Source: Myxococcota bacterium (GTDB lineage Bacteria > Myxococcota_A > Polyangia > Polyangiales > Sandaracinaceae). From it: a DNA stretch of 17,884 nt. A program made the position numbers and the translations under genes. Of this stretch, positions 1 to 15,903 are shown piece after piece. Below the pieces are notes generated by a model. The model was not told the DNA's origin. It was given only the letters and a program-made list of their open reading frames with translations, and made no database searches. Within the stretch, counting starts at the first letter, position 1, and each line of letters opens with the position of its first letter. The stretch lies in contig JAYZQJ010000153.1 in NCBI GenBank assembly GCA_036149055.1, positions 1 to 17,884 on the forward strand, given 5' to 3'.

Positions 1-2
1 CA

Positions 3-152: not shown

Positions 153-163
153 GCACTAGCGTC

Positions 164-1222
164 TCACCAGAGCGTCGGCTCGCGGTGGAGCTCGACGCCG
201 AAGCGATCTTTCACCGCCGCGCGGACCCGCTCGGCGAGCTCCAGCAGCTCCCGGGTGGTGCCGCCGCCGTGGTGCACCAGCGCGAGCGCGTGCTTGGTGC
301 TGATGCCCACGTTGCCGTGGCGGGTCCCCTTGCCCATGCCGGCGCGCTCGATCAGCCAGCCGGCCGCGAGCTTGACCCGATCGCCGGCCGGCCAGCGCGG
401 CACCTCGCCCTCGTGGGCGACGATGCCCTCGGCGACGGCCCGCCGGACCACCTCCGCGGCGACCTCGGGGGGGACGATCGGGTTGGTGAAGAACGAGCCG
501 GCGCTCCGGTGGTTCTCGTCGGCGAAGTCGAGCACCATCGACTTGCGGCGCCGCAGCGCGATCACCGTCTCGCGCACGTCCGAGAGCGACGGCGTCGCCC
601 GCCCCTCGAGCGCCCGCTCCAGCTCCGCGTAGCGGATCGCCGGGGCGCCGCCGGCCGTGAGCGCGAAGGTCACCGCCAGCACCACGTAGCGGTCGGGGTG
701 CTGCTTGAAGAAGCTGTCGCGGTAGGCGAAGCCGCAGTCCTCGGGCGCCATCGCGCTCACCCGCAGCGACTCCCGGTCGAGCACCCGGACGGAGGTGATC
801 GTCTCCGAGACCTCCTGGCCGTAGGCGCCGACGTTCTGGATCGGCGTCGCGCCGACCCGGCCCGGGATGCCGCTCAGACACTCGAGCCCGGCGAGCCCGG
901 CGGCGACGCAGCGCTCGACGAAGAGATCCCAGTCCTCTCCGGCGGCGGCGGTGACGAGGACCCGGTCGCCCTGGTCGTCCTCCTCGATGCCACGCTGCGC
1001 CATCTCGACCACGAGCCCGGCGTGGCCCTCGTCGGGCACGATGAGGTTGCTGCCCCCGCCGAGGATCCCGACCGGCAGCCCCACCCGCCGCGCCCAGCGG
1101 AGCGCCTGGGTGACCGACGCCTCGTCCTGGGCGCGCAGGTAGTGCTTCGCCCGGCCCCCGAGCCGGAGCGTGGTGCGGGGGCCGAGGGCGACGTCCTCGA
1201 GGATGTCGATGCCGGGGATCAA
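164..1222 (-). CDS. murB: UDP-N-acetylenolpyruvoylglucosamine reductase
   Basis: Motifs GGGSNL, LSGIPGxVGAxPIQNVGAYG, FAYRDSxFK, SAGSFFxNP, HALAL and C-terminal LHREP. TTG start overlaps the serS TGA (TTGA). Confidence 0.96.
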   Translation of the reverse strand: MIPGIDILEDVALGPRTTLRLGGRAKHYLRAQDEASVTQALRWARRVGLPVGILGGGSNLIVPDEGHAGLVVEMAQRGIEEDDQGDRVLVTAAAGEDWDLFVERCVAAGLAGLECLSGIPGRVGATPIQNVGAYGQEVSETITSVRVLDRESLRVSAMAPEDCGFAYRDSFFKQHPDRYVVLAVTFALTAGGAPAIRYAELERALEGRATPSLSDVRETVIALRRRKSMVLDFADENHRSAGSFFTNPIVPPEVAAEVVRRAVAEGIVAHEGEVPRWPAGDRVKLAAGWLIERAGMGKGTRHGNVGISTKHALALVHHGGGTTRELLELAERVRAAVKDRFGVELHREPTLW

Positions 1223-2526
1223 GCGGGCGCGATCGTCTCGAAGCCGACGTAGGGGCGGAGCGCCTCGGGCACGATGACCGAGCCGTCCGCCTGCTGGTAC
1301 TGCTCGAGGATGGCGACGAGCGTACGGCCGACCGCGAGCCCCGAGCCGTTCAGCGTGTGCACGAGCTGCGGCTTCGCCTTGGGCTCGGGCCGGTAGCGGA
1401 TCTTGGCGCGCCGCGCCTGGAAGTCACCGAACCACGAGCAGCTCGAGATCTCGCGGAAGGCGCCCTGACCGGGCAGCCAGACCTCGAGGTCGTAACACTT
1501 CTGCGCCGCGAACCCGAGGTCCTTGGTGCAGAGCTCCATCACCCGGTAGCGCAGGCCGAGCCTCTGGAGGACCGCCTCGGCGTGACCGACCAGCTTCTGG
1601 TGCGTGGCCTCGGCGCGCTCGGGGGCGCAGAAGTGCACGAGCTCGACCTTGTCGAACTGGTGCTGCCGGATGAGGCCCCGGGTGTCCTTGCCGTGGCTGC
1701 CCGCCTCGCTGCGGAAGCACGGCGTGTAGGCGCAGTAGGCGAGGTCGAGCGCGTCCGCCTCGAAGATCTCGTCGGCGTGGTAGTTGGTGATCTGCACCTC
1801 GGCGGTGGGCGACAGGAAGTGCCGCACCCGCTCGGCCTGGTCGCCCTCCTCGTAGTGCCGCTGCACCTGGAAGGCGTCGTTCTCGAACTTCGGGAGCTGG
1901 CCGGTGCCGCGCAGCGCCGAGTCCTTCACCAGCGCCGGGGGCCACAGCTCCTCGTAGCCGTGCTCGCCGGTGTGGAGATCGAGCATGAAGTTGATGAGGC
2001 CGCGCTCGAGCCGGGCCCCCTTGCCGCGGAGCACCGTGAAGCGCGCGCCGCTGATCTTCACCGCCCGCTCGAAGTCGAGGATGCCGAGCGCGCGGCCAAG
2101 GTCGTCGTGCGGCCTGGGCTCGAAGTCGTAGCTCCGCGCCTCGCCCCACACCCGCACCTCGACGTTGTCCTCTTCGCCGGCGCCGACCGGGGTGCTCTCG
2201 TGCGGCAGGTTCGGCAGACCGAGCAGGATCTCGCCCAGCTCCGCCTCGACCGCCTTGTGGCCGCCCTCGAGCTCCTTGATGCGCGCGCCGATGGCCTTCA
2301 TCTCGTCGCGCACCCTGGCGAACTCGTCGCTCTTCTTGTCGACGGTCGCCATCGCCTTGCTGGTCTCGTTGCGCTTCGCCCGGAGCGCCTCGACCTCGGT
2401 GATCGCGCTCCGGCGCTGCTCGGCCAGCTCGGCGAGGCGCTCGAGGGACCCCGGATCGGCGCCGCGCGCCGCGAGCTTCGCCCGCACCTCGTCGAGATGT
2501 TCCGTGACGTGCCGAAGGTCCAACAT
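1219..2526 (-). CDS. serS: Serine--tRNA ligase
   Basis: MLD start, N-terminal coiled coil, LPNLPH, PTAEV, FRSEAGSHGKDTRGLIRQHQFDKVEL, EISSCS, HTLNGSGLAVGRT. Confidence 0.98.
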   Translation of the reverse strand: MLDLRHVTEHLDEVRAKLAARGADPGSLERLAELAEQRRSAITEVEALRAKRNETSKAMATVDKKSDEFARVRDEMKAIGARIKELEGGHKAVEAELGEILLGLPNLPHESTPVGAGEEDNVEVRVWGEARSYDFEPRPHDDLGRALGILDFERAVKISGARFTVLRGKGARLERGLINFMLDLHTGEHGYEELWPPALVKDSALRGTGQLPKFENDAFQVQRHYEEGDQAERVRHFLSPTAEVQITNYHADEIFEADALDLAYCAYTPCFRSEAGSHGKDTRGLIRQHQFDKVELVHFCAPERAEATHQKLVGHAEAVLQRLGLRYRVMELCTKDLGFAAQKCYDLEVWLPGQGAFREISSCSWFGDFQARRAKIRYRPEPKAKPQLVHTLNGSGLAVGRTLVAILEQYQQADGSVIVPEALRPYVGFETIAPA

Positions 2527-2532
2527 GCGGCG

Positions 2533-2574
2533 GCTATAGCACGTTCCGCCTGTGGTAGCGTCGCGCCCCGGAGG
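2533..2574. promoter_or_regulatory. Back-to-back extended -10 promoters for serS and the DUF1517 gene, plus RBS
   Basis: Minus strand TGcTATAGC (2541-2533) lies 6 nt before the serS ATG. Plus strand TGgTAGCGT (2553-2561) and GGAGG (2570-2574) precede the GTG at 2583. Confidence 0.5.
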
Positions 2575-2582
2575 TCTCGAGC

Positions 2583-3623
2583 GTGCGCAAACGTTGGTTC
2601 CGTTGGGCCTTGGCGGTGGTCGCCGCCATCTGGTTGGGACTCGGCGCCTACCCCGTGGTCGCGCAGTCGACCGGCGGCAGCTTCGGCGGCGGCAGCTTCG
2701 GCGGCGGAGGCGGCGGCGGGAGCAGCTACGGCGGGGGCGGCGGCAGCTTCGGCGGCTCCGGCTACTCGGGCGGCAGCTACTCCTCCGGCTCCTACTCGGG
2801 CGGCGGCGGCGGCGGCGGCGGGCTCCCCTGCGGCTGCATCCTCCCGCTGTTCATCGGCCTCATCCTCTTCGTCGTCATCACCGGCGCGATGAAGAAGAAG
2901 GGTGGGTCGAGCCACGGCTCCAAGGCGTGGGGCAACGTCGACATCAGCGCCATCCGCCTCGGCATCGACTGGCGCGCGCGGCGGGAGCTGCAGGCCCACC
3001 TCGAGCGGCTCGCGAAGAGCGGCCAGACCGGCACGCAGGCGGGGCTCGCGAGCCTGCTCCGCGAGACCATCCTCGGGCTGCGTCGCGCGGAGCTCGCCTG
3101 GCTCTACGCGAACGTCGCCAACTACAAGCCGATGAGCGCGGCGATGGCCGAGGGCATCTTCCGCCAGCTCGGCACCGACGCCCGCTCGCGGTTCCGGCAC
3201 GAGCTGGTGCGCAACGCGGACGGCAGCACCTCCGAGGTGAGCGTCCCCGAGATGCGCGCGCGCCCCGAGGAGGGCGAGGGCGTGGTGGTCGTGACCCTCA
3301 TCGTCGCCGCGCGGCGCGAGATCCTGGACGTCGCCCAGGTGCAGGACGCCAACGCGCTCAAGGCGCTGCTCGACGACATGGTGGCGGTCGCCAACCCGCA
3401 CACGCTGATGGCGATGGAGGTGATCTGGTCACCCGCCGCCGAGAACGACCGCATGAGCACCGCCGAGCTCGAGCAGTTTTACCCGCAGCTGCAGAAGATC
3501 GACGAGCGCTCGATCGCCGGCCGCGTCTTCTGCAGCTACTGCAAGGGCCCGTTCGCGATGGAGCTGCTGCAGTGCCCGCACTGCGGCGCCCCGGCGCCCG
3601 GCGCGGACGACGCCCACACCTGA
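2583..3623 (+). CDS. DUF1517 (FLAP1-like) membrane protein with C-terminal zinc ribbon
   Basis: Signal/TM segment, STGGSFGGGSF followed by a Gly/Ser tract, a TM helix, GLASLLRETILGLRR, VVVTLIVAA, EVIWSP...MSxxEL...YPQL, then CSYC-x10-CPHCG. GGAGG RBS upstream. Confidence 0.82.
   Translation: MRKRWFRWALAVVAAIWLGLGAYPVVAQSTGGSFGGGSFGGGGGGGSSYGGGGGSFGGSGYSGGSYSSGSYSGGGGGGGGLPCGCILPLFIGLILFVVITGAMKKKGGSSHGSKAWGNVDISAIRLGIDWRARRELQAHLERLAKSGQTGTQAGLASLLRETILGLRRAELAWLYANVANYKPMSAAMAEGIFRQLGTDARSRFRHELVRNADGSTSEVSVPEMRARPEEGEGVVVVTLIVAARREILDVAQVQDANALKALLDDMVAVANPHTLMAMEVIWSPAAENDRMSTAELEQFYPQLQKIDERSIAGRVFCSYCKGPFAMELLQCPHCGAPAPGADDAHT
2672..2823 (+). repeat. Gly/Ser low-complexity coding tract (GGC-rich, GGSF/GGSY units)
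   Basis: Repeated GGCGGCAGCTTC/TAC units and (GGC)n runs within the DUF1517 ORF. Confidence 0.8.
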
Positions 3624-4628
3624 TCAGGAGGCCGGGGGGTTGCCGATCTCGCCGAGGAACGCTCGGTAGTCGTCGGCGACCCCCACGCCTTCGATCACGG
3701 CCACCGCCTCCGCCATCGCCCGATCGGGGCGGGCGCCGCGCGCCTCGAGCGACCCGGCGATGTGGCGCGCGATGGCGACCCGCGACGCGAGGTCGCGCCG
3801 GGCGTCCTCGAAGCTGCCGAAGAAGGCCCACTCGAGCGACCACACGTAGTCGGCGACCCAGTCGCGCAGGATCTCCTCGGCGTCGCCGGGCACCGAGCGC
3901 GCCTCGGCGCGGTCGAAGGCGTCGGCCCACTCGAGGGTGGCGTCGACGTGGTCGGTCGAGCGCCCCCCGAGGGCCAGGATGGCCGCGCCGAAGCAGCGCA
4001 CCGCGGCGCCGAAGCGCCCGCCTCCCTCCTCGAGGGCGAATTCCTCCCCGAGCGCGAGCCAGCGCTCCGGGGCGCCCGAGAGCGGCGGGGCGTCGAGCAC
4101 GTCGAGCGGGTCCTCGCGTCGCAGCCGCGCCAGGAGCGCCGACTCGATCCGCTCCCACTCCTCCACGCTCACCGCGCGGTCGTCGTCGATCCAGAGCGGT
4201 CCGGCGATGTGCCGCGACGGCTTCGGCGTGACCGCCAGCGCGGCGTCGGCCTTCAGGGGCGCGCGCTCTCCCATGGTGCGGCAGGGGCACCGGTGCTCGG
4301 TGCAGACGCGGCCGCCGGTCGGGGTGGCGACGAGCATGAAGGGGAACTGTCGACAGGTGGCCGGCTTCACCTCGGGGCCGAGCCGCGCGTGCAGCTCGCA
4401 GGTCCCGGCGCCGGCGAACATGCAGCGCCCCTCGACCGTGGTCACGAGCACCCGGTCGTCGCCGCTCCACCCGAGGATGCGCTCGTCGATCGCGCCGAGC
4501 AGCCGCGCCTCGTCTTCGGTCACCGGACCGAGCAGGTGCACGTCGCTGCAGCACAGCCCGTCGCCGTGACAGGTGAAGCGCGCGCCGGGGCGAACGCGCA
4601 GGGGGTGCAGCTTCGTCTCACCGGCCAT
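3624..4628 (-). CDS. YkgJ-like (CxxCxxCC) Cys-cluster putative Fe-S/Zn protein
   Basis: FTCHGDGLCC near the N-terminus, RCMF...CELH...KPATCRQFPF, and an extra CTEHRCPC. High GC3. Its stop abuts the stop of the convergent gene (TGA/TCA at 3621-3626). Confidence 0.78.
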   Translation of the reverse strand: MAGETKLHPLRVRPGARFTCHGDGLCCSDVHLLGPVTEDEARLLGAIDERILGWSGDDRVLVTTVEGRCMFAGAGTCELHARLGPEVKPATCRQFPFMLVATPTGGRVCTEHRCPCRTMGERAPLKADAALAVTPKPSRHIAGPLWIDDDRAVSVEEWERIESALLARLRREDPLDVLDAPPLSGAPERWLALGEEFALEEGGGRFGAAVRCFGAAILALGGRSTDHVDATLEWADAFDRAEARSVPGDAEEILRDWVADYVWSLEWAFFGSFEDARRDLASRVAIARHIAGSLEARGARPDRAMAEAVAVIEGVGVADDYRAFLGEIGNPPAS

Positions 4629-4836
4629 GGGACCCCGTACCGCATCCCCCCGCGCGTGTCACTGCCGCCCAGGCTGCAAGGCTTCACCCCCCGCCCGCCG
4701 TCGTGACGCGAGCCCCGCCTCACCCCGGCCCATGTGCCTCGCATTCGACGCCCCTCGAGCGGCGCGCAGGGCTCGGTACGCCAGCTGCAACGTCTCTTCG
4801 GTGCAACCCATCACCGAACACGAAGGAGACGACGAC

Positions 4837-5016
4837 ATGGGGAAGACCACCCGCACCGCGAAGAACACCGTCAAGCGCGGCACCAAGAAGACCGCCGACG
4901 CCGTCGAGAAGACCGGCGACGCTGCCGCCAGCGTCGTGAAGGGCGCCACCCGCACCGCGCAGCGCGGCGTGAAGAAGGTCACCAACACCGTCAAGCGCGG
5001 GGCCAACAAGGCCTGA
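4837..5016 (+). CDS. Small basic 59-aa peptide of five 11-residue repeats
   Basis: AAGGAG RBS at ~4823-4828, ATG 4837, almost all codons G/C-ending, and a strong hairpin downstream. The longer 4573 start in the ORF track is unlikely. Confidence 0.8.
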   Translation: MGKTTRTAKNTVKRGTKKTADAVEKTGDAAASVVKGATRTAQRGVKKVTNTVKRGANKA

Positions 5017-5035
5017 CGCGCCTCCCCTCCTCCTC

Positions 5036-5067
5036 GATCCGCGGGGCCCATCCGGGCTCCGCGGATC
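5036..5067 (+). terminator. GC-rich hairpin downstream of the small gene, possible terminator
   Basis: GATCCGCGGGGCCC-atcc-GGGCTCCGCGGATC, a 14-bp stem with one G-U pair. No classic U-tract (followed by cctaatt). Confidence 0.45.
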
Positions 5068-5230
5068 CCTAATTCGGGCGCCTGACCGATACGCGGCGGC
5101 CAGCCTCGATCCCGCCGCCAGCCCAGCCCCTTTGCGGCTTCGCGCCTTCGCGAGAGCAAAAAGGGGCGACCGAAGCGTCCCAGCCGACGAGGCTGGAACC
5201 GCGCAGCGGGGGGCCTAGGGGCGTGCCTGA

Positions 5231-6208
5231 ATGTGGCGGGCGCGGACGTGGATGACCGGCTGCGGGTGGGCGTGCATCTCCGGGTGCGACGGCCCGCAGT
5301 CCGCGCTCGCGGCCGCCGGGCGGGACGCGGAGCGCATCGCCGAGCTCTTCTGGTGGATGGGCGCGGGCGCCCTGCTCGTCTGGGGCGCGGTCATGCTCTC
5401 GGCGGTCTACGCCGCGCGGTCCGAGAAGGAGCACGACCCGAAGCTGGCGTCGCGCTTCATCGTCGGCGGGGGCGTGGTGTTCCCCACCGTCGTGCTCACC
5501 GCGCTGCTCTCCTTCGGGCTCGCGATGATGCCCGACCTGCTCGCGCCCGGGGCCGCCTCCGCGCCGCGCATCCGGGTGAGCGGTGAGCGCTGGTGGTGGC
5601 GCGTCACCTACGACGTCGACGGCCGCCCGGTCGAGCTCGCCAACGAGCTGCGGCTGCCGGTCGGGGAGCGGGCCGGGCTGACGCTGGTGAGCCCCGACGT
5701 GATCCACGCCTTCTGGGTCCCCTCGCTGGCCGGCAAGGTCGACATGATCCCCGGGCGGGAGAACCGCATGGCCCTCGAGCCGACCCGCATCGGGCTCTAC
5801 CGCGGCGCGTGCGCCGAGTTCTGCGGCGGGGCCCACGCGATGATGGCGTTCCACGTCGAGGTGCTCGAGCGGCCCGCGTTCGACGTCTGGCTCGCCGAGC
5901 AGGCCCGCCCCGCCGCGCCGCCGGAGGGCGCGCGAGCCACCGAAGGCGCGCGGGTGTTCGACGTGCACGGCTGCGGCGCGTGCCACGCGGTCCGCGGGAC
6001 CCACGCCGACGGAACCGTCGGGCCCGACCTCACCCACGTCGGCGGCCGGCACCGCATCGCCGGCGTGCTCCCGAACGACGTCGAGGGCTTCCGCCGCTTC
6101 GTCCGTGACCCCGCCGCGGTGAAGCCCCACGCCGAGATGCCGGCCTACGCGACGCTCTCCGACGACGAGCTCGACGCGCTGGCCCACTACCTGGATGGCC
6201 TGCGATGA
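5231..6208 (+). CDS. coxB: Cytochrome c oxidase subunit II fused to a C-terminal cytochrome c (caa3-like)
   Basis: Two TM helices, RWWWRVTY aromatic loop, DVIHAFW, CuA motif CAEFCGGAHAMM, heme c motif CGACH with distal MP. Possible lipobox ISGC. Start could be 5231 or 5252. Confidence 0.93.
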   Translation: MWRARTWMTGCGWACISGCDGPQSALAAAGRDAERIAELFWWMGAGALLVWGAVMLSAVYAARSEKEHDPKLASRFIVGGGVVFPTVVLTALLSFGLAMMPDLLAPGAASAPRIRVSGERWWWRVTYDVDGRPVELANELRLPVGERAGLTLVSPDVIHAFWVPSLAGKVDMIPGRENRMALEPTRIGLYRGACAEFCGGAHAMMAFHVEVLERPAFDVWLAEQARPAAPPEGARATEGARVFDVHGCGACHAVRGTHADGTVGPDLTHVGGRHRIAGVLPNDVEGFRRFVRDPAAVKPHAEMPAYATLSDDELDALAHYLDGLR

Positions 6209-8736
6209 AGACCGCCAAAGGCGACGTCGAGCCCCTCGAGGAGCCGTTCTCGGAGGCGCTCCAGGAGGCGCAGAAGCAGCGGCTGCGGGCCGCGTGGAAG
6301 ACGCCCACCGGCTGGCGCTACTGGTCGGCGGTGAACAACACCGAGGTCGGCGTCTGGTACACCGCGACCGCCTTCGGGTTCTTCCTCTTCGGGGGGCTGC
6401 TCGCCCTGGTGATGCGGGTGCAGCTCGCCGTGCCCGACAACACCCTGCTCGACGCGAACACCTACGACCAGTTCTTCACCCTGCACGGCTCGGTGATGAT
6501 GTTCCTGTTCGCGGTGCCCGTGTTCGAGGCGTTCTCGATCATGGTGCTGCCCGAGATGCTCGGCGCGCGTGACCTGCCGTTCCCGCGCCTGAGCTCCTAC
6601 GGCTTCTGGTGTTACCTCATCGGCGGCGTCTTCGTGTGCGGCTCGCTCTTCTTCGGGCAGGCGCCGATGGGCGGCTGGTTCATGTACCCGCCGCTGACCA
6701 CGCAGTACACCGAGGGCTACGGCGTCGACATCTGGCTGCTCGGCCTCTCGTTCATCGAGGTGGCCTCGATCGCGGCCGCGGTGGAGCTGATCGTCGGCGT
6801 GCTGAAGTGCCGGCCGCCCGGGATGCGCATCAACCTCATCCCGCTCTACAGCTGGTACATCCTCGTGGTCGCGGCGATGATCCTCTTCGCCTTCCCGCCG
6901 CTGATCGCCGGCGACATCTTGCTCGAGGTCGAGCGCGCCTTCGACTGGCCCTTCTTCGACCCCGAGCGCGGCGGCGACCCGCTGCTCTGGCAGCACCTCT
7001 TCTGGATCTTCGGCCACCCCGAGGTCTACATCGTCTTCCTGCCGTCGATCGCGCTGGTGGCGATGATCGTGCCGACTTTCGCGAAGACCCCGATGGTCGG
7101 CTACGGCTGGGTCGTGCTCGCCGCGGTGGGCACCGGGTTCCTCAGCTTCGGGCTGTGGATCCACCACATGTTCACCACCGGGCTGCCCGGCGTGTCGCTC
7201 GCGCTCTTCAGCGCCGCGTCGGAGGCGATCGCGATCCCCACCGGGGTGCAGCTCTTCTGCTTCATCGCGACGCTGCTGGTCGGCCGCGTGAAGATGAAGG
7301 TGCCGATGCTCTTCGTGCTCGGCGGCTTCAGCACCTTCATCATCGGCGGGCTCACCGGGGTGATGGTCGCGTTGGTGCCGTTCGATCTGCAGGCCCACGA
7401 CTCCTACTTCGTCGTCGGCCACCTCCACTCGGTGCTCATCGGGGGGACGATCTTCCCCATCATCGGCGCGGCCTACTACTTCTTCCCGCTCATCGGCGGC
7501 AAGCACCTCTCCGAGAAGCTCGGCCGGCTCTCGTTCTGGCTGATGTTCGTCGGCTTCAACGTGACCTTCGTGCCGATGCACCTCACCGGCCTGCTCGGCA
7601 TGCCGCGCCGGGTCTTCACCTACCCGGAGGAGCTCGGCCTGGGGGCGCTCAACATGGCCTCCACCGTCGGCGCCTTCATCCTCGGCCTCGGCGTCCTGGT
7701 CTTCGTGATCGACGTCTTCCGGCCCAAGAAGAACCAGCCCTACGCGAAGCGAAACCCCTGGGGCGCGGGGACCCTCGAGTGGCTCGCGCCGATGCCGGAC
7801 GAGGCCTGGGGCGTGCGGTCCATCCCCGAGATCGACTCGCGCTACCCGCTCTGGGATCAGCCGAACTTCGTGCGCGACGTCGACGAGGGCCGCTTCTACC
7901 TGCCCGACGCCGAGGAGGGGCTGCGCGAGACCCTCGTGACCAGCCCGGTGGACGCGCAGCCGATCCAGTGCCTGCGGGTGGCCGGCCCGACCTGGCTCGC
8001 GATGATCGCCGCCATCTTCACCGGCGGCCTCTTCATCTTCTCCACGTTCCACATGTACACGCCCGCGCTGATCAGCGGGGCGCTCGCCTTCGTGACCGTG
8101 GTGCGCTGGCTCTGGACGGGCACCGCGGTGATCCCCGAGAAGAAGGAGAAGCACGTCGGCCTCGGGCTGACGCTGCCGCTCTACCGCTCGGGCCCGAAGT
8201 CGGTCGGCTGGTGGGGCATGCTGATCATGATGCTCGGGGACATGACGGCGTTCCTCGCGCTGATCTTCGGCTACTTCTTCTACTGGACCGCCGACACCGA
8301 CTTCGTCACCGCCGATACGCCCGCCCTCGACACCCTCTGGCCCGCGGTCGGCGCGGCGGCCATCGTCGGCTCCTGGCTCGCCACCTACGCGGCCAAGCGG
8401 CTGAACCGACGCACCGCCGCCGGCTTCTACGGGGCCATCGCGGTGGCGCTCGGCCTCGGCGCGCTCGGGTCGTGGGCGCTCCTGCGGGCGCCCGGCGCGC
8501 TCGATCCGACGGCGCACGTCTACCCGGCGATGGTGTGGCTGCTCTTCGGCTGGTCCGCGCTCCACGCGATCGTCGGCGTGATCATGCAGCTCTACTGTCT
8601 CGCCCGCAGGATCGCGAGGCGCATGGACGGCGAGCACGACATCGACATCGTCAACGTCACGCTCTACTGGCACTTCGTGCTCGTGACCGTCGTGATCACG
8701 ACCGCCGTGCTGCTGGGCTTCCCGAGGCTGCTGTGA
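6205..8736 (+). CDS. ctaD: Heme-copper oxidase subunit I fused to a subunit III-like domain
   Basis: FTLHG, WIFGHPEVY (A1-type), WIHHM, HDSYFVVGHLH, GMPRR. The C-terminal ~250 aa is multi-TM with LHAIVG and LYWHFV as in subunit III. ATGA overlap with subunit II. Confidence 0.95.
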   Translation: MKTAKGDVEPLEEPFSEALQEAQKQRLRAAWKTPTGWRYWSAVNNTEVGVWYTATAFGFFLFGGLLALVMRVQLAVPDNTLLDANTYDQFFTLHGSVMMFLFAVPVFEAFSIMVLPEMLGARDLPFPRLSSYGFWCYLIGGVFVCGSLFFGQAPMGGWFMYPPLTTQYTEGYGVDIWLLGLSFIEVASIAAAVELIVGVLKCRPPGMRINLIPLYSWYILVVAAMILFAFPPLIAGDILLEVERAFDWPFFDPERGGDPLLWQHLFWIFGHPEVYIVFLPSIALVAMIVPTFAKTPMVGYGWVVLAAVGTGFLSFGLWIHHMFTTGLPGVSLALFSAASEAIAIPTGVQLFCFIATLLVGRVKMKVPMLFVLGGFSTFIIGGLTGVMVALVPFDLQAHDSYFVVGHLHSVLIGGTIFPIIGAAYYFFPLIGGKHLSEKLGRLSFWLMFVGFNVTFVPMHLTGLLGMPRRVFTYPEELGLGALNMASTVGAFILGLGVLVFVIDVFRPKKNQPYAKRNPWGAGTLEWLAPMPDEAWGVRSIPEIDSRYPLWDQPNFVRDVDEGRFYLPDAEEGLRETLVTSPVDAQPIQCLRVAGPTWLAMIAAIFTGGLFIFSTFHMYTPALISGALAFVTVVRWLWTGTAVIPEKKEKHVGLGLTLPLYRSGPKSVGWWGMLIMMLGDMTAFLALIFGYFFYWTADTDFVTADTPALDTLWPAVGAAAIVGSWLATYAAKRLNRRTAAGFYGAIAVALGLGALGSWALLRAPGALDPTAHVYPAMVWLLFGWSALHAIVGVIMQLYCLARRIARRMDGEHDIDIVNVTLYWHFVLVTVVITTAVLLGFPRLL

Positions 8737-9122
8737 TCGACGACACGCAGGGACCCGAGGAGGAGACGGAGAGCCTGTGGTGGCTGACGGTGGCCCCGGC
8801 CGCCTGGGTCGCGCACCTGCTCGCCTCCTACGCCACGGTCGCGGTGTGGTGCGCGAAGGTCACCGACCGCGACGGCGCGCTCGGCGACGCGCGCTGGATG
8901 GTCGCCGCCTACACCGCGGTCGCGCTCGCGCTCATCGGCTGGGTCGCGGTGCACGGCTTCCGGCGGCACCGCTTCGGCGAGGGCGTGCGCCCGCACGAGC
9001 TCGACACGCCCGGCGACCGGCACCGCTTCCTCGGCTTCGCCACCTTCCTGCTCGCCGGGGTGAGCGCGGTCGCCACCGTCTACGTGTCGCTGGTGGTCGT
9101 CTTCATCGGGAGCTGCCAGTGA
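8733..9122 (+). CDS. Small 3-TM membrane protein of the oxidase operon (129 aa)
   Basis: GTG overlaps the subunit I TGA (GTGA). It is the 3' end of track ORF 6609-9122 and has three hydrophobic segments, with W-x-x-HLLASY..C and a terminal C. Confidence 0.78.
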   Translation: MIDDTQGPEEETESLWWLTVAPAAWVAHLLASYATVAVWCAKVTDRDGALGDARWMVAAYTAVALALIGWVAVHGFRRHRFGEGVRPHELDTPGDRHRFLGFATFLLAGVSAVATVYVSLVVVFIGSCQ

Positions 9123-9754
9123 TCGCAGGTGGGCCGAGCAGACCTGGGCTGACGGGGGGCGGGCTGCTCGTGCTGGCCCTCGCCTGGCTCTGGCCGCTGC
9201 CCCACCTCGGGCTGCCGCCCTTCACCACCCACATGACCATGCACATGGCGGTGGTCGCGGTGGCGGCGCCGCTCCTCGCGCTCGGGGTCGCCGGCACGCG
9301 CGCCGATCTCGTCTTGCGTCGCCCGGCCTGGATGGCCGCGATCCCCGCCTCGCTCGCCGAGCTGATGATCGTCTGGGTCTGGCACGCCCCCGCCTTGCAC
9401 GAGCTGGCCCGCGACCACCTCGCGCTGAAGGCCCTCGAGCAGCTCAGCTTCCTCGCCGCCGGCGTCTGGCTCTGGCTCTCCGCCCTCGGCGGCCGGCCGG
9501 CGCAGCGCCGGGAGCGGGCGACCGCGGGGGTGACCGCCCTGCTGCTGACCGCGATGCACATGACGCTGCTCGGCGCGCTCCTGGTGGTCGCGCCGCGGGT
9601 GCTCTACCCGTGCGTCCGGCTCTGCGGCGGCGTCGACGCGCTCACCGATCAGCACATCGGCGGCGCGATCATGCTCCTGGTCGGCGGCGCGGCGTACCTC
9701 GCGGGCGGGGTGGGCCTGACCGCGGACGTGATCGCCTGGCGGAGGCGCGCGTGA
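9119..9754 (+). CDS. Caa3-type CtaG-like cytochrome c oxidase assembly factor
   Basis: GTGA overlap at the start. HMTMHM, WVWHAPALH, MHMTLLGALL and DQHIGGAIM motifs in a multi-TM protein. Confidence 0.83.
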   Translation: MIAGGPSRPGLTGGGLLVLALAWLWPLPHLGLPPFTTHMTMHMAVVAVAAPLLALGVAGTRADLVLRRPAWMAAIPASLAELMIVWVWHAPALHELARDHLALKALEQLSFLAAGVWLWLSALGGRPAQRRERATAGVTALLLTAMHMTLLGALLVVAPRVLYPCVRLCGGVDALTDQHIGGAIMLLVGGAAYLAGGVGLTADVIAWRRRA

Positions 9755-10824
9755 CGCGGCGGAAGTGGATCGTGCGGGGCGCGATCGCGCTGGCGGCCCT
9801 CGGCGCGCTCGGGGCGGCGGTGATGTTCTCCGGCGTCATCCCGGTCACCGCGAGCTCCGGCCACTGGGACATCACGAAGTGGGTGCTGCACACCGCGATG
9901 CGCCGCTCGGTCGCCACCCACTCGATGGGGCTCGAGGTCCCGGACGACCTCGACGCCGAGGGGCGGGTGCTGGTGGGCGCCGGCCACTACGAGCACGGCT
10001 GCCGCTACTGTCACGGCGCGGTCGGGACGCGCATGCCGCGTGTGCCGGCCGCGATGACGCCCGCGCCGCCCTGGCTCCCGCCCCGGATCCGCGGGCTCGA
10101 CGACGCCGAGCTCTTCTACGTTGTGAAGCACGGGGTGAAGTTCACCGGCATGCCGGCGTGGCCCAGCCAGGTCCGCGACGACGAGGTCTGGTCGGTGGTC
10201 GCGTTCCTCCGCCGCATGCCCGAGATGTCCGACGCGGAGTACCGCCGCCTCACCCGGGTCGAGGGAGACGCCCCTCGGCTCGTCGTCGAGCGCTGCGCCC
10301 GCTGCCACGGCGTCGACGGGCTCAGCCGCGGGGTCGACGGAAGCGCGCCGCGCCTCGCCGGTCAGCGCCCCGCCTACCTCGACGCGGCGCTGCGGGCCTA
10401 CGCGGAGGGCGCCCGCCCGAGCGGCGTCATGGAGCCGCTCGCCGCCGAGCTCTTCGAGGCCGACCGGCGGGTGGTCGTCGACTGGTACGCCTCCCGCCCG
10501 CCGATGCCCGCCGCCGAGCCTCTCGCGGGCGCCGACCTCGAGCGCGGGCAGGCCGTCGCGAGGGACGGCGTGCCGGACGAGCGGGTCGCCGCGTGCAGCG
10601 AGTGTCACGGCCCCGACCCGAGCGAGGAGTCGGAGTCGCACCCCAGGCTCGGCGGCCAGTGGGCCGGGTACCTCGAGAGCCAGCTCCGCCTCTTCGCGGC
10701 CGGCGTCCGGGGCGGCGCGCCGCAGGCCGAGCTGATGGAGGAGGTCGACCCCCACCGCCTGACCGACGCCGAGCTCCGCGACGTCGCCTCGTACTACGCG
10801 AGCGTGCAATCGGCGCACGAGTGA
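9751..10824 (+). CDS. Membrane-anchored triheme c-type cytochrome (monoheme domain plus c4-like diheme)
   Basis: GTGA overlap, N-terminal TM, three CxxCH motifs (CRYCH, CARCH, CSECH), GVKFTGMPAW, and PRLAGQ/PRLGGQ c4-type motifs. Confidence 0.9.
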   Translation: MTRRKWIVRGAIALAALGALGAAVMFSGVIPVTASSGHWDITKWVLHTAMRRSVATHSMGLEVPDDLDAEGRVLVGAGHYEHGCRYCHGAVGTRMPRVPAAMTPAPPWLPPRIRGLDDAELFYVVKHGVKFTGMPAWPSQVRDDEVWSVVAFLRRMPEMSDAEYRRLTRVEGDAPRLVVERCARCHGVDGLSRGVDGSAPRLAGQRPAYLDAALRAYAEGARPSGVMEPLAAELFEADRRVVVDWYASRPPMPAAEPLAGADLERGQAVARDGVPDERVAACSECHGPDPSEESESHPRLGGQWAGYLESQLRLFAAGVRGGAPQAELMEEVDPHRLTDAELRDVASYYASVQSAHE

Positions 10825-10837
10825 TCACGTTGAGCGC

Positions 10838-11374
10838 ATGACCGCGCTGGACACCCTGGCGTCGCGCCTGAGCCTCGGCGATCTCCTGGAGACGCTGCGG
10901 GCCGGCTGGGGCGACTACGAGCTGCTCGCCCACTGGACCCCGCTCCCGGAGGGGGCCTGCGCCCCCTCCCGGCCGACCGGCAAAGCCGGCTCGGCCTCCC
11001 ACCCCATCTAACGCGCTCACGCGCGTTGAAGGTGCGGCGAGGCCGCACCTTCCGGCGAGTTCCACCACGACGTCGTCCTGAAGGTCGACGACCCGAAGAG
11101 CCTGCCCGGGCCGTACCTGGTCGTGGCCACCAACTGCAACGGGGGCGTCAAGGAGGTGCTCTGCTTCGGCGAGCGCCCCGACCGGGAGGCGCTGTGGCAC
11201 TGGCGCTGCCCGGAGGGCGAGTTCGAGGACCGGACGCTGCCCCCGATCCTCGCCCGCGAGGAGACCTGTCACTTCTTCGATCCCTGCGAGCTGCTCGCGG
11301 CCGACGCCCGGAGCGAGCTCCGCCCCGAGCACCGCCGTCGCCAGCGAGGCGGCGGCTGGGAACCCGCGTATTGA
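10838..11374 (+). pseudogene. ~140-aa His/Cys-rich hypothetical gene interrupted by a structured insertion (pseudogene or discontinuous gene)
   Basis: ATG 10838 lies 13 nt after the cytochrome stop. 10838-10939 (MTALDTLASRLSLGDLLETLRAGWGDYELLAHWT) and 11054-11374 (GEFHHDVVLKVDDPKSLPGPYLVVATNCNGGVKEVLC...WHWRCP...HFFDPC...GGGWEPAY) share one frame with near-total G/C third positions. They are separated by a hairpin array containing TAA (11009) and TGA (11027). Confidence 0.72.
10940..11053. mobile_element. Four-hairpin palindromic insertion (REP/RPE/MITE-like), ~111-114 bp
   Basis: HP1 10948-10969 (9 bp), HP2 10971-10996 (11 bp, 1-nt bulge), HP3 11010-11027 (7 bp), HP4 11028-11052 (11 bp). 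No clear TIR or target duplication. Confidence 0.7.
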
Positions 11375-11506
11375 GCCCGCACGAAACGTGAACGCTTCGT
11401 CGCGTTTGTTCGCAAGTCACTGGAATGATTGAAATCGGCGCTCGCTCCAACGCGAGTGGCGGGGCGATCTCCCGGGCGTACGCTGTCCTCCTTTCCGGGG
11501 GGAACG

Positions 11507-12154
11507 ATGAGCGACAGCGATCTGCCGGGGGGGCTCCGGCACAAGGTGCGTCCGCGCTTTCTCACGCCGCGGCGCAGCAGCTGGGTGGGCGCGGTGATCG
11601 ACGGGCTCGGCGCGAGCGCCGCGTCTTCGATCGTGCTGCCGGAGGAGCCGCGGCGGCGGATCGACGGGCTGCCCTACGAGGTCGGCTACGTGCTCGAGCA
11701 CCGCGAGGCGCGCATCCGGATCGGCTGGTGGTGGGCCCGCCAGGAGGGGCTCGCCGAGCGGGGGCTGTACACGCTGGCGATGCACAACCTCTGGAGCGAA
11801 GGGCTGCTGCGCGCCTTCGACCACTACCCGGACCACGGCGCGCCGATCGTCATAGACGACCCGCTCGGCTACGCGGCGAGCGCGGCGCTGCTGTTGCCCG
11901 ACCTGCTCTCGGACGGCGAGGCGCTCATCGCCTTCTCGCTGCGGCCCGGGCAGCTCCTCCTCTTCGCGAGCGACGATCCCGATCTCGACCTGGCGCTGCT
12001 CGAGCTCCGGCAGGGCGGCTTCGACTTCGACGTCGCCCCGATCCCGGAGCCCGTCCGGGTCACCCGTCGCGGCTTCGCCAGCCTCGTCCCCCTGCGCGAC
12101 ACCGTCCGGGACCGGCTCCCCGGAGAGCTCGGCGACACCCCCACACCGCGTTGA
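11507..12154 (+). CDS. Hypothetical protein, DUF1444 (UPF0354)-like
   Basis: ATG 11507 after GGGGGAA, high GC3. The pattern VGYVLE...GL.ERGLYTLAMHNL...DPLGYAASAALLLP...LIAF...QLLLF resembles DUF1444 by eye only. Confidence 0.55.
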   Translation: MSDSDLPGGLRHKVRPRFLTPRRSSWVGAVIDGLGASAASSIVLPEEPRRRIDGLPYEVGYVLEHREARIRIGWWWARQEGLAERGLYTLAMHNLWSEGLLRAFDHYPDHGAPIVIDDPLGYAASAALLLPDLLSDGEALIAFSLRPGQLLLFASDDPDLDLALLELRQGGFDFDVAPIPEPVRVTRRGFASLVPLRDTVRDRLPGELGDTPTPR

Positions 12155-12192
12155 GAAAAACGCGCCCGCGGGGATTGCGGTCGAGGTCCGCA

Positions 12193-12218
12193 GTTTTATG
12201 AAGTGCCCATTCCAAAAC
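12193..12218. promoter_or_regulatory. Candidate TetR operator upstream of the SDR-TetR operon
   Basis: AT-rich imperfect palindrome GTTTTATGAA-gtgccca-TTCCAAAAC in a GC-rich background. TTGCGG at 12175-12180 and GGAGG RBS at 12232-12236. Confidence 0.55.
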
Positions 12219-12243
12219 ACGCCGTACGGCGGGAGGAGTGGAC

Positions 12244-12987
12244 ATGAGCCGATTTCAGGGACGCAACGTGGTCATCACCGGGGGCTCGGGGGGCATCGGC
12301 AAGGCGACCGCGGCCAGGGTGGTGAGCGAGGGCGGCAAGGTGCTCATCACTGGCACCAACCAGGAGAAGCTCGATCAGGCCGCGCGCGAGATCGACGGCG
12401 TGATCCCGTTCGTGAACGACGCGGGGGATCCGGAGAGCGCGCTCGCGCTCGCGGAGGCGGTCGAGACGCACCTCGGCCAGGTCGACGGGCTGTTCCTCAA
12501 CGCGGGCTATGGCGAGCTGGTGTCGCACGATCAGGTGACGGTCGCGCAGTTCGATCGACAGTACGCCGTCAATGTGCGTGGACCGATTCTTCAGGTGCGC
12601 GCGCTCGCGGGGCTCCTCCGGGACGGCGGCTCCATCGTGCTCAACACGTCGGTGGTGCAGTCCGTCGGCATGCAGGGCGGCATCCTCTACGGCTCGTCCA
12701 AGTCCGCGCTCCGCAACGTCACGCGCGTCCTGGCCGCCGAGCTGGCGCCGCGGATCCGGGTCAACGCGGTGAGCCCGGGCCCGGTCTCGACCGACTTCTT
12801 CGCGCGGACGGGCTTGCCCGAGGAGCAGACCGCGCAGCTCGCGGAGGGCATCCTCGCGCAGGTCGCGCTGAAGCGCTTCGGCGAGGCGTCCGAGATCGCC
12901 AGCGCGGCCGCGTTCCTCCTGTCGGACGACGCCTCCTTCGTCACCGGGAGCGAGCTCGTGGTCGACGGCGGCATCACGCAGGTGTAG
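12244..12987 (+). CDS. Short-chain dehydrogenase/reductase
   Basis: TGGSGGIGK Rossmann motif, NAG, catalytic S and YGSSK, IRVNAVSPG, VTGSELVVDGG. RBS spacing favours ATG 12244. Confidence 0.95.
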   Translation: MSRFQGRNVVITGGSGGIGKATAARVVSEGGKVLITGTNQEKLDQAAREIDGVIPFVNDAGDPESALALAEAVETHLGQVDGLFLNAGYGELVSHDQVTVAQFDRQYAVNVRGPILQVRALAGLLRDGGSIVLNTSVVQSVGMQGGILYGSSKSALRNVTRVLAAELAPRIRVNAVSPGPVSTDFFARTGLPEEQTAQLAEGILAQVALKRFGEASEIASAAAFLLSDDASFVTGSELVVDGGITQV

Positions 12988-12996
12988 CCCTTCCAG

Positions 12997-13590
12997 GTGG
13001 GCCGACCCCGCAAGATGTCGCGCGAAGAGACCCTCGAGCTGGCGCTGCAGCTCTTCTGGCAGCGCGGGTTCGAGGGGACCTCGATCGGTGAGCTCTCCCG
13101 CGCGATCGGGGTCGGGCCTTCGAGCCTCTACAACACCTTCGGCAGCAAGAACGAGCTGTTCCGGGAGTGCCTCGAGGCCTACACGGCGCGGGAGGGCGCC
13201 TTCGTGCGCGACTCGCTGGCGAAGGACGACGCGGTCGAGGCCCTGACCGCGCTCCTCCGCAGCGCGGCCGCCCGCTTCACGCGCGAAGACCAGCCCCGGG
13301 GCTGCGCCGTGCTCACCGCGCCGAACCCCGATCGGGTCGAGAACGCCGACGTCGAGGCGCTGCTCCGCGACCTGCGCCGCCAGACGCTCTCGATGATCGA
13401 CGCCCGCGTCCGCCGTGGCGTGGAGGAGGGTGACCTGGCGGCGGACACCGACGTCGCCAACCTCGCGCGTTACGTCTACGGCGTGATGCAGGCGCTCTCC
13501 GCGCAGGCCCGCGACGGGGCGGACCCGGACGCGCTCGGCGCCTTCGCCGAGCTCGCGCTCCAGGTCGTCGAGCGAGCCCGCGCGATTTAG
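12997..13590 (+). CDS. TetR/AcrR family regulator (ComR/NemR-like)
   Basis: GRPR start, ALQLFWQRGFEGTSI...SLYNTFGSKNELF HTH, PRGC motif, ALSAQARDG. Confidence 0.93.
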   Translation: MGRPRKMSREETLELALQLFWQRGFEGTSIGELSRAIGVGPSSLYNTFGSKNELFRECLEAYTAREGAFVRDSLAKDDAVEALTALLRSAAARFTREDQPRGCAVLTAPNPDRVENADVEALLRDLRRQTLSMIDARVRRGVEEGDLAADTDVANLARYVYGVMQALSAQARDGADPDALGAFAELALQVVERARAI

Positions 13591-14597
13591 CGACTCGCGT
13601 CGAGGATCTTCCGGGTAAGGGTGGAGACGCCGACCTCGGAGAGCTCGTCCTCCGAGAACAGCCGCGCTCCGTCGCTCGACGGCGCGGCGGCGGTCGCGCG
13701 CCACACGCGGACCCCGAGCCGCCGGTGGGTGAGCACGTGCTCGACCTCGGCCGCGGGGTCCCGGGAGAGCCGGGCCTTCACGCCGGCCTCGCGCAGCGCC
13801 GCTCTCGCGGCGTCCCGGCCGTCGCCCTCGGCGGTGGGCACGCCCCAGAGCCCGCCGAAGAGGGCGCCGTCGCGTTTGGTCAGCGCCACGCGCCCGCCTC
13901 GGGTGGCCACCACCGCGGAGAGGCGCACCGCCTTCGGCGCCTTCTTGGGGCGAGGCACGGGCAGCTCGCGCTGCCTCCCTTCGTCACGGGCGACGCAGGC
14001 GGCGACCGGGCACGCGTCGCAGCGCGGGCTCTTCGGCGTGCAGACGCGCGCGCCCAGCTCCATCAGCGCCTGGTTCAGGTCGCCCGGGCGGGGCCCCGCC
14101 ACCAGCCGCTCGGACTCCGCCCACAGCCGCCGCTCCGTGTCGCCCCGGCCGAGCGGGGTGTCGATCCCGTGCACGCGCGTCAGCACGCGGGCCACGTTCC
14201 CGTCGACGATGGGCTCGGCGCGGTCGAAGGCGATCGAGCCGATCGCGCCCGCGGTGTAGCGACCGACGCCCGGCAGCCCGCGCCGCGCCTCGGCGTCCTC
14301 GGGGACCGCGCCGCCGTAGCGCGCCACGACCTCCTTCACCCCGGCGTGGAGCAGCCGCGCGCGCCGGTAGTAGCCGAGGCCGCTCCACATCGAGAGCACG
14401 TCGTCTTCGTCCGCCGCGGCCAGGTCGTGGGTCGTGGGGAAGCGCTCGAGGAAGCGCGTCCAGTAGGGGATCACGGTCTCGACGCGGGTCTGCTGGAGCA
14501 TGATCTCCGAGACCCAGATCGCGTACGGGTCGCGGGTCTCGCGCCACGGCAGCGCGCGCTTGTGGGCGTCGTACCAGCGGAGGAGCGCGGCCCGCAT
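13587..14597 (-). CDS. mutY: A/G-specific adenine DNA glycosylase
   Basis: LLRWY...LPWR...PYAIWVSEIMLQQT, WSGLGYYRRA, HhH LPGVGRYTAGAI, VDGNVARV, ALMELGA plus a four-Cys cluster. ATG 14597 overlaps the kinase TGA (TGATG). Confidence 0.96.
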   Translation of the reverse strand: MRAALLRWYDAHKRALPWRETRDPYAIWVSEIMLQQTRVETVIPYWTRFLERFPTTHDLAAADEDDVLSMWSGLGYYRRARLLHAGVKEVVARYGGAVPEDAEARRGLPGVGRYTAGAIGSIAFDRAEPIVDGNVARVLTRVHGIDTPLGRGDTERRLWAESERLVAGPRPGDLNQALMELGARVCTPKSPRCDACPVAACVARDEGRQRELPVPRPKKAPKAVRLSAVVATRGGRVALTKRDGALFGGLWGVPTAEGDGRDAARAALREAGVKARLSRDPAAEVEHVLTHRRLGVRVWRATAAAPSSDGARLFSEDELSEVGVSTLTRKILDASR

Positions 14598-15865
14598 CAG
14601 CTCATCAGGAGGATGGCGAGGGCGACGACGACGACGAGCCCGGCGAGCCCGAAGGCGCCGATCGCGATCGCGAGCAGGACCCAGAACATCGGGCTGCGCT
14701 TCGCCTCCGCCGGGACGGCGCTCGCGCGGGCCTGGATCGGCGGGGGCGCCGGGAGCGCGGCGTGCTGCCCGGTGATGAGCGGCGCCGGCTGCACGTCGGG
14801 CGTGGTCTGCACCGCGGCGGCGTGCGGCTGAGGCGCAGGCGGCGGGTGCGGCATCGACGCGCGCGGGACCTGCGGCATCGACATGCGCTCCTGGGCCGAG
14901 GGCTGGCGGGCGGTCGCGTCCGGCGCGTCCATCTCCCAGCCCCGCTCCGGGAAGGTCCAGCTGACCAGGCGCGCGAGCTGATCGCGGCCGTACCCCGGCG
15001 CCACCTCGTGCAGCATCTCGCGCAGCTGCATGCCGAGCGCCTGCGCGGTGGGCGTGCGGATCGTCGCGTCCTTGGTCAGGCAGCGCATGACGATCGCGTC
15101 GACCTCGGCCGGCACCTTCGGGTTGTAGGTGCTGGGCGGCGGGAACTTGCACGCCTCGAGCATCTGCGCCGCGGTCATCGGATCGTTCGGCGGCATCAGC
15201 GTGCGCATCGTCAGCATCTCCCAGACGACGATGCCGAGGCTGAACACGTCGGCGCGGGCGTCCACGTCGCGGTGGTCCGCCTGCTCGGGCGCCATGTAGC
15301 TCATCTTGCCGATCGGCACGCCGCTGCCGGTCTGCACGACGTTGTCGGCCGCCTTCACGAGCCCGAAGTCGCTCACCTTCACCGCGCCCTCGTTCGAGAG
15401 CAGGACGTTCTGGGGCGAGACGTCGCGGTGCACGATGCCGAGCGGGTTGCCCTGCTCGTCGCGCTTGCGGTGCGCGTGATCGAGCCCCGCCGCCGCCTCC
15501 GCGCCGATGAACAGCGCGGCCGCGATCTCGAGGTGCTGACGCTTCTCGACCAGCTGCTGCAGCAGGAGCGCGAGGGTGACCCCCTCGACGAACTCCATCA
15601 CCAGGAACGGCTCGGGCTCGATGCCGAAGTCCACCACCGCGACGAGGTTCGGGTGGTCGAGCCGGGCGTTGGTGCGCGCCTCGGCCGCGAAGCGCTCGAG
15701 CAGCGAGGGGTCCCGCCGGTACTGCGGGAGCATGCGCTTGAGCGCGACCTTCTTGCGGAAGCCGGCCTCCCCGGAGCGCTCGCCCCGGTAGACCATGGCC
15801 ATCCCGCCCTGCCCGAGCTTCTCGAGCAGACGGTATTCACCCAGCTGCGCGGGCTCCGCGGACAC
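14597..15865 (-). CDS. Hanks-type Ser/Thr protein kinase with C-terminal membrane anchor
   Basis: LGQGGMAMVY, VALK, HRDVSPQN, DFG, YMAPE, DVFSLG. Pro-rich linker and a terminal TM helix with no external domain. Start at GTG 15865 is inferred. Confidence 0.92.
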   Translation of the reverse strand: MSAEPAQLGEYRLLEKLGQGGMAMVYRGERSGEAGFRKKVALKRMLPQYRRDPSLLERFAAEARTNARLDHPNLVAVVDFGIEPEPFLVMEFVEGVTLALLLQQLVEKRQHLEIAAALFIGAEAAAGLDHAHRKRDEQGNPLGIVHRDVSPQNVLLSNEGAVKVSDFGLVKAADNVVQTGSGVPIGKMSYMAPEQADHRDVDARADVFSLGIVVWEMLTMRTLMPPNDPMTAAQMLEACKFPPPSTYNPKVPAEVDAIVMRCLTKDATIRTPTAQALGMQLREMLHEVAPGYGRDQLARLVSWTFPERGWEMDAPDATARQPSAQERMSMPQVPRASMPHPPPAPQPHAAAVQTTPDVQPAPLITGQHAALPAPPPIQARASAVPAEAKRSPMFWVLLAIAIGAFGLAGLVVVVALAILLMS

Positions 15866-15903
15866 CGGCGAATGCTTTACCACGCGGCGCCGATCGAGGC
15901 CGC

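Follow-up and report, generated by a model that had tools for sequence, protein, structure and literature searches.

The 17,884-nucleotide (nt) stretch of DNA analysed here (the window) comes from a Myxococcota bacterium of the Sandaracinaceae (JAYZQJ010000153.1, positions 1 to 17,884) and carries a heme-copper oxidase (HCO) operon. A subunit II-cytochrome c fusion, a fused subunit I+III, a membrane protein of 129 amino acids (aa), a Caa3_CtaG protein and a triheme cytochrome c are encoded in this order, with overlapping stops and starts. Subunit I retains the metal ligands, the K-channel lysine is replaced by glutamine, and the D-channel asparagines have given way to other residues, glutamate among them. 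We read the enzyme, with a probability of about one half, as a caa3-like, accessory member of the A-family, a cytochrome c:O2 oxidoreductase that would have a single proton channel, a glutamate-lined D-channel, and proton pumping that is lost or low.

Positions in subunit I were mapped to E. coli CyoB and, via P0261, to the oxidases of P. denitrificans (1AR1) and R. sphaeroides (1M56). Residues are given below as query residue = R. sphaeroides residue. The ligands of heme a (H94/H408), heme a3 (H406) and CuB (H271/H320/H321) are all kept, as are E273 = E286 and Y275 = Y288 in the active site, the latter being the position of the cross-link tyrosine. Among the channel residues, D123 = D132 (nt 6571), T346 = T359, Y52 = Y33 and S188 = S201 are retained. 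The same holds for the exit-side residues R468/R469 = R481/R482 and D394/H398/D399 = D407/H411/D412, for W158 = W172, and for G270 and V274 of the O2 path. A preliminary description, aligned by eye, had reported the six histidines, the HPEVY motif, D132 and T359 as present; the reference mapping agrees, and all of its coordinates hold.

The conservation of the altered residues was assessed in two sets, the best 119 homologues from 8000 scored sequences (120 with the query) and the best 80 of 514 GTDB loci. The substitutions K362Q, N139S, N121I and N207E, proposed in the preliminary description, were confirmed by mapping to the references. The new glutamates at G117 and G198 were confirmed as well, and are invariant in the loci (78/78 each). 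A further glutamate, E340 = M353 (nt 7222, in AASEAIA), is present in the query but is not found throughout the clade (86/119 homologues, 73/80 loci, Met in S. meliloti). Of the proposed change from HFHY to HLHS, the step from F to L is general, but the Ser is a minority state (31/119 homologues; Tyr in 76/80 loci). On these counts, E340 and the HLHS Ser were rejected as clade features. The mapping added changes that had escaped the reading by eye, namely G133 = S142, I184 = S197, A187 = S200 and G198 = T211, and A286 = S299 and W302 = P315 on the K-channel side.

The K-channel losses go together: S299, P315 and, in subunit II, the K-channel entry residue E101 (E78 in P. denitrificans), a position at which Glu was found in none of 71 loci. 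The K-channel is thus dismantled at both ends, and the D-channel is therefore the only evident proton route. Neither a compensating Lys nor a canonical Asn, either of which had been named as evidence against rewired channels, is present at equivalent positions. No compensating Lys or Arg was found within the helices: three of the basic residues (R71, R128, R244) are canonical, and three others (K201, K438, R441) are located at helix ends. An alignment artefact was ruled out, as there is no Asn in residues 94-135 or 184-198 and the four references share the register. In helix VII, a polar path might persist in part, as the polar residues T310 (93%) and S314 (98%) are clade-enriched.

Table 1. 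Channel and active-site features of subunit I and genes of the operon. Residues in brackets follow R. sphaeroides numbering; gene counts refer to homologues in the 80 loci, some of which are truncated.
Positions	Strand	Feature	Support
7015..7029	+	HPEVY (CuB His, E286, cross-link Tyr), intact	119/119 homologues, 80/80 loci
6526..6528	+	E108 (G117), new Glu on helix II, one turn beyond the N121 position	
6538..6594	+	D-channel mouth/gate: I112 (N121; nt 6538), D123 (D132, kept), S130 (N139; nt 6592)	
6757..6786	+	Helix IV: E185 (G198; nt 6757), S188 (S201), E194 (N207; nt 6784)	
7060..7251	+	Dismantled K-channel: A286 (S299), W302 (P315), T346 (T359, kept), Q349 (K362; CAG 7249)	
5231..6208	+	Subunit II (CuA) with C-terminal cytochrome c fusion	Pfam COX2 + Cytochrom_C; 76/80 loci
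6205..8736	+	Subunit I+III fusion of 843 aa with altered channels; 19 membrane helices predicted	TIGR02891; 80/80 loci
8733..9122	+	129-aa membrane protein, unnamed family, three hydrophobic stretches by eye	78/80 loci
9119..9754	+	Caa3_CtaG copper-insertion factor	PF09678, 89 bits (cut-off 27.7); 69/80 loci
9751..10824	+	Membrane-anchored triheme cytochrome c	Three CxxCH motifs; 75/80 loci

Q349, S130, E108 and E194 occur in each of the 119 homologues, as do the six His ligands and Y275, and I112 in 118. In the loci, Q349 and Y275 were found in 80/80, E194 in 79/79, and E108 and E185 in 78/78. At the S130 position, 72 of 78 loci have Ser and the other 6 Gly; the D123 position is Asp in 56 and Glu in 22, and thus acidic in all 78. 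Active-site, Mg and propionate residues are invariant in both sets. Both Glu codons and both Gln codons are used among the loci, and the ratio of nonsynonymous to synonymous substitutions (dN/dS) was 0.024-0.077 in the 8 of 12 locus pairs for which it was computed. The operon is under purifying selection, and the channel pattern reflects neither chance nor sequencing error. As a separate observation, the Ser at the N139 position (6592-6594) is encoded by AGC here and by TCN in all 72 Ser-bearing loci, implying a putative separate mutational route via Asn or Gly.

Co-occurrence was followed in 163 core-spanning sequences, comprising the loci, 82 of 150 representatives, the query and two references. 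The Glu triad was present in 98 of them, with Gln at the 349 position in 97, Ile in one and Lys in none. Conversely, none of the 34 Lys-bearing representatives had any of the three Glu. The suggestion in the preliminary description that the enzyme is alternatively wired is thus supported: the K-channel is lost at several positions and in subunit II with no compensating Lys or Arg, and Asn is replaced by co-conserved Glu.

A FastTree core tree was built from A-type-like sequences only (the query, 12 of the loci and the 82 representatives, with CyoB as root). The Glu-triad clade (support 0.996) was nested within a clade with no Lys362 in any member (support 1.0). Most D-channel Asn are retained in the two sister branches of the triad clade, of which one has Glu286 and Gln362 and the other Trp at the 286 position; branching among these two and the Glu-triad clade had a support of 0.36. 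By parsimony, this single tree method suggests that K-channel loss may have come first and the Glu lining second. The branch with Trp in place of E286 and without Lys362 consists of P0135, P0162, P0217, P0177 and P0195; P0135, P0162 and P0217, the members in which the D-channel region is covered, kept the D-channel Asn. Six long-branch clade members (P0144, P0148, P0150, P0205, P0207, P0216) have lost a CuB His or the cross-link Tyr while keeping the heme His, and may be decayed copies or non-oxidase derivatives.

That the oxidase of the window is itself decaying or catalytically dead is hardly credible. The loss of CuB ligands in some long-branch relatives (P0144, P0148, P0207, P0216) would fit such a fate, but here the frame is intact, dN/dS is below 0.08, the ligands are invariant and the five-gene operon is conserved with its own copper chaperone.

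The predicted residues place the protein among the O2 reductases of the HCO superfamily, with six His ligands and the cross-link Tyr of helix VI. Membership in the A-family is indicated by the CtaD/CoxA model TIGR02891 (699 bits, cut-off 670.75) and by structure comparison, in which A-type structures ranked first and ba3 far lower. Against the canonical A1 fingerprints (Sousa et al. 2011, PMC3084760, Table 2), only four of the eight D-channel residues (Asp124, Asn199, Asn113, Asn131, Tyr35, Ser134, Ser193, Glu278) are kept, namely Asp, Tyr, Ser193 and Glu; Asn199 is replaced by Glu, Asn113 by Ile, Asn131 by Ser and Ser134 by Gly. Of the K-channel residues Lys354, Thr351, Ser291 and Tyr280, Thr and Tyr remain, with Gln for Lys and Ala for Ser. 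The B-type pattern (no D-channel; Thr, Ser and Tyr at the Lys354, Thr351 and Ser291 positions) does not apply either, since these positions hold Gln, Thr and Ala, and D132 and E286 are kept. HCO NO reductases are characterized by absence of the Tyr and, in cNOR and qNOR, by a FeB Glu; in the present clade the Tyr is present and invariant.

These features also bear on the substrate. It is chiefly the reductive phase that requires the K-channel, and turnover of the peroxidase type persists in Lys mutants. On this basis H2O2 or NO, rather than O2, might be the physiological substrate, as the preliminary description had ventured; K-channel loss and the stress-type promoters and neighbours described below would fit. 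We consider this very improbable, because the cross-link Tyr is invariant, three His bind CuB, a FeB Glu is missing and the O2-path residues G270 and V274 are present. HCO NO reductases are described as lacking the cross-link Tyr (PMC11214002). The invariant His-Tyr site and the absence of a FeB Glu argue for O2 chemistry.

An AlphaFold2 model of subunit I+III, computed from a 138-row alignment, reached a predicted local distance difference test score (pLDDT) of 95.5 and a pTM of 0.94, and shows 12 helices in the core, two in the linker and five in subunit III; a single-sequence model (pLDDT 42.6) was discarded. Superposition on R. sphaeroides 2GSM gave a root-mean-square deviation (rmsd) of 1.5 A over 534 columns. 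By helix periodicity, E108 lies on the conserved face of helix II, 57 degrees off and one turn from the N121 position, and E340 faces away from the conserved T359/K362 face of helix VIII. We infer from the sequence that the three Glu line the D-channel.

Thermus thermophilus caa3 belongs to the A2-type pumps, and its K- and D-channels are of the usual kind. It is the closest structure match (Foldseek, 2YEV_A, TMq 0.85, 31% identity) and shares the fusions of subunit I with III and of subunit II with cytochrome c. The query differs in having HPEVY, in lacking Lys362, in the Glu lining of its D-channel, in its triheme cytochrome and in its small subunit, which is unrelated. It shares its core fold (rmsd 1.5-1.8 A), metal ligands, E286, Y288, D132 and T359 with aa3 of R. 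sphaeroides (1M56/2GSM) and of P. denitrificans (1AR1); unlike these A1 enzymes, it has new Glu at G117, G198 and N207 and has partly lost the channel fingerprints.

In architecture, the operon matches the COX operon type a (A1 subtype a) of Degli Esposti, with a COX1-3 fusion of about 830-850 aa, a COX2-cytochrome c fusion and Caa3_CtaG in the cluster (PMC4013037, PMC6431628). Pyrroloquinoline quinone (PQQ) dehydrogenases are often nearby in both that type and the clade loci, and the type a descriptions in these papers concern architecture. In PMC8239418, 'subtype a & a-II' is scored 'yes' for the K-channel (supplement), and the K-channel table has no row with Gln at K354. The sequences tested here, as aligned, contradict that score. 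K-channel loss is known in other A-family branches (bioRxiv 2020.03.01.968255; PMC8239418). Acidophilic iron oxidisers (Acidithiobacillus and its relatives) likewise have lost Lys354/362 and subunit II Glu78/101 (bioRxiv 2020.03.01.968255), but there the Lys is replaced by a hydrophobic residue and the D-channel is canonical, whereas here Gln replaces Lys, the D-channel is rebuilt and the hosts are not known acidophiles. The operon type has thus been published; the combination of K362Q with Glu for Asn (three Glu) is apparently undescribed, as no description was found in the open full-text literature, to which the search was confined, subscription papers lying outside it.

The five-gene operon recurs across several phyla. 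Carriers were found among Myxococcota, Planctomycetota, Verrucomicrobia, Rhodothermales, Nitrosococcus, Pseudomonas/Stutzerimonas, many Rhizobiales and plasmids of the Roseobacter group, which fits, together with the searchable literature, the earlier characterization of the operon as widespread and uncharacterised. The host genome (96% complete) encodes other oxidases: an ACIII-linked A2 enzyme with Lys362 and all three Asn (C233), two CcoN-type genes and cytochrome bd. It also encodes heme A synthase and a homologue of heme O synthase. Of 35 carrier genomes, 34 have more than one match to the COX1 family, and the operon marker gene was found in only 4 of 40 relatives. On account of these three observations, the other oxidases of the genome included, the oxidase is accessory. 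The GC content at third codon positions of the operon equals that of neighbouring housekeeping genes, so any transfer was not recent. Two genomes are noted for their oxidase genes. The host genome contains a cbb3-type CcoN fused to a CcoO-like cytochrome (G000:C284, L084:2880-5390), and in the 4.3-Mb genome G005 (locus L019) 11 matches to the COX1 family were counted, several of them with long open frames, suggesting that it encodes several fused oxidases that are paralogues.

A promoter pattern of the EcfG/RpoE2 type has the consensus GGAAC-N16/17-CGTT. Of 62 alphaproteobacterial loci, 9 have it upstream of subunit II, compared with 22 of 6150 background windows; a looser version gave 14/62 and 53/6150. 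The homologue on pSymB of S. meliloti, 48% identical and present in strain 1021 as well, carries the corresponding residues E99, E177, E186, S121 and Q341. Overexpression of RpoE2 in S. meliloti raises SMb21366 (log fold change 1.73), SMb21367 (0.94) and SMb21369 (0.83) (PMC6180224). By synteny, SMb21366, SMb21367, SMb21369, SMb21368 and SMb21370 would correspond to CtaG, cytochrome c, an antiporter, subunit II and subunit I, respectively. Recurrent, though not universal, neighbours of the operon are a sorbosone-type dehydrogenase in 9 loci, PQQ glucose dehydrogenase in 7, and a short-chain dehydrogenase and DUF2231 in 6 each. Three RNA-library runs were rejected as evidence of transcription; in X1, from a near-identical strain, contigs of up to 29 kb span intergenic stretches as well as genes, and DNA in the library is therefore likely.

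In the preferred reading, electrons would pass from periplasmic donors through the triheme cytochrome c to the heme c of subunit II, CuA, heme a and the heme a3-CuB site, where O2 would be reduced at a His-Tyr cofactor whose residues are present. Loss of the K-channel would have come first. In the D-channel, the Asn/Ser lining would next have given way to three Glu (E194 at the mouth, E108 and E185 higher up), and these may bring all chemical protons to E286, including those of the reductive phase that belong to the K-channel. The price, to judge from N139D and N207D, would be a pump that is lost or much reduced: model enzymes in which N139 or N207 is replaced by a carboxylate are uncoupled, with turnover at least as high as before (PMC7196763). 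The enzyme would then mainly separate charge. It probably acts, beside canonical oxidases, as an electron sink or O2 consumer in stress or stationary phase, a role suggested by the EcfG-type promoters in Rhizobiales and the partial RpoE2 induction in S. meliloti.

Several points weigh against this reading. The promoter motif is absent from 53 of 62 alphaproteobacterial and from all 12 other loci, the loci that carry it are related, so that its significance is overstated, and neither a sigma-70 nor an EcfG-type promoter was found upstream of the operon in the window. SMb21368 and SMb21370 are not among the RpoE2-induced genes listed in PMC6180224. The count of 34 in 35 carriers refers to family matches alone, irrespective of Lys362 or channel residues, and the helix IV face analysis is equivocal (E185 at +66 degrees, E194 at -114 degrees). 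No activity, pumping or expression data for any clade member were found in the literature searched.

The remaining counterpoints concern the pump. D132N/N139D restores pumping in R. sphaeroides (PMC7196763), the D132 position is relaxed, with Glu in the 22 loci noted above, and the exit-side residues are fully kept; pumping may therefore survive. The earlier label 'non-pumping' thus holds as far as the analogy with N139D and N207D makes it plausible (PMC7196763), but is called into question by the D132N/N139D mutant and by the relaxed D132. The corresponding alternative, a single-channel A-type oxidase that still pumps, with relocated carboxylates carrying both chemical and pumped protons and E194 replacing D132 in uptake, is a serious though less probable rival. 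Besides these points it draws on the retention of E286, W158 (W172), R468/R469, D394, H398 and D399, and on the Lys-less A-family oxidases of iron oxidisers, which are thought to rely on the D-channel (bioRxiv 2020.03.01.968255). However, the D132 position is acidic in every one of the 78 loci, which leaves two carboxylates at the mouth, as in the uncoupled single mutants, and the exit-side residues also bind hemes and Mg, so that their conservation is not specific for pumping.

A bolder proposal, which we think unlikely, is that the E108/E185/E194 triad makes the D-channel a new coupling site, so that the enzyme would be either a fully pumping A-family oxidase without a K-channel or the first Na+-coupled one; a dedicated new small subunit and a triheme donor would be part of it. 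There is little to recommend the idea that the three buried Glu form a cation site, for Na+ translocation or regulatory Ca2+/Zn2+ binding, instead of a proton wire. It could appeal to three invariant intramembrane carboxylates with Ser and Tyr nearby, and to an annotated sodium:calcium antiporter gene between subunits II and I on S. meliloti pSymB (L082/L083; L082:5928-7001; see also L013:4861-5871). Of 80 other loci, only 1 has a homologue of this antiporter next to the operon, and a general partnership was rejected; the host genome has none. The carriers are not confined to marine or alkaliphilic taxa but extend to rhizobia and Verrucomicrobia, and with the K-channel gone the chemical protons have no other evident route than the D-channel. 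For Na+ coupling, which the preliminary description had considered, no positive evidence emerged.

Why A-type oxidases need two proton channels, and what part the Asn gate plays in pumping, are old questions that have been probed nearly only by laboratory mutants. Mutation of K362 inactivates model enzymes. The clade unites, under strong purifying selection, a change of this inactivating kind with changes at positions whose mutation uncouples (N139, N207), and its invariant Glu may compensate for the channel losses. It is a natural test of proton movement in these oxidases, and the presence of a full-signature member on pSymB of S. meliloti 1021 makes the question directly testable. Among genes with an ordinary ctaD or 'subunit I+III' annotation, many may encode enzymes whose energy conservation differs from that of textbook aa3 oxidases.

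The other products of the operon fit a caa3-like complex. Subunit II scored 141 bits against TIGR02866, slightly below the cut-off of 147.7, and retains H159, C194, E196, C198, H202 and M205; a Cys in its N-terminal motif makes it a probable lipoprotein. The three CxxCH motifs of the triheme cytochrome c, the probable electron donor, are kept in 73 of 75 homologues.

The 129-aa protein is probably a subunit IV analogue. P22, W25, H28, Y33, C40, R96 and C128 are invariant; H28 is intramembrane, and C40 and C128 form an invariant Cys pair. Pfam and NCBIfam searches gave no match, an ESM Atlas search returned unnamed clusters only, and homology to CyoD was rejected (no profile match to E. coli CyoD, hhalign probability 0.1%). 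A complex model with subunit I+III scored 0.49, compared with 0.00 for the best control; runs agreed in at least 87% of contacts, with a partner pLDDT of at least 67. Of 157 solved complexes, 116 attained this mark, as did 2 of 215 mismatches; however, only 18 of the 157 did so with scores of 0.60 or less, the range in which both mismatches fell, and the model thus weakly favours the predicted pairing.

Three further reading frames lie near the operon. Directly upstream, positions 4836-5016 (+) encode a repetitive 59-aa product rich in Lys, Thr and Ala, with no match in Pfam or NCBIfam and, by eye, a resemblance to hydrophilic stress proteins. A 334-aa protein at 3624-4628 (-) has no family match and possibly binds metal through Cys clusters near its N-terminus. 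Directly downstream of the operon, a putative 83-aa coding frame at 11123-11374 (+) contains four spaced Cys.

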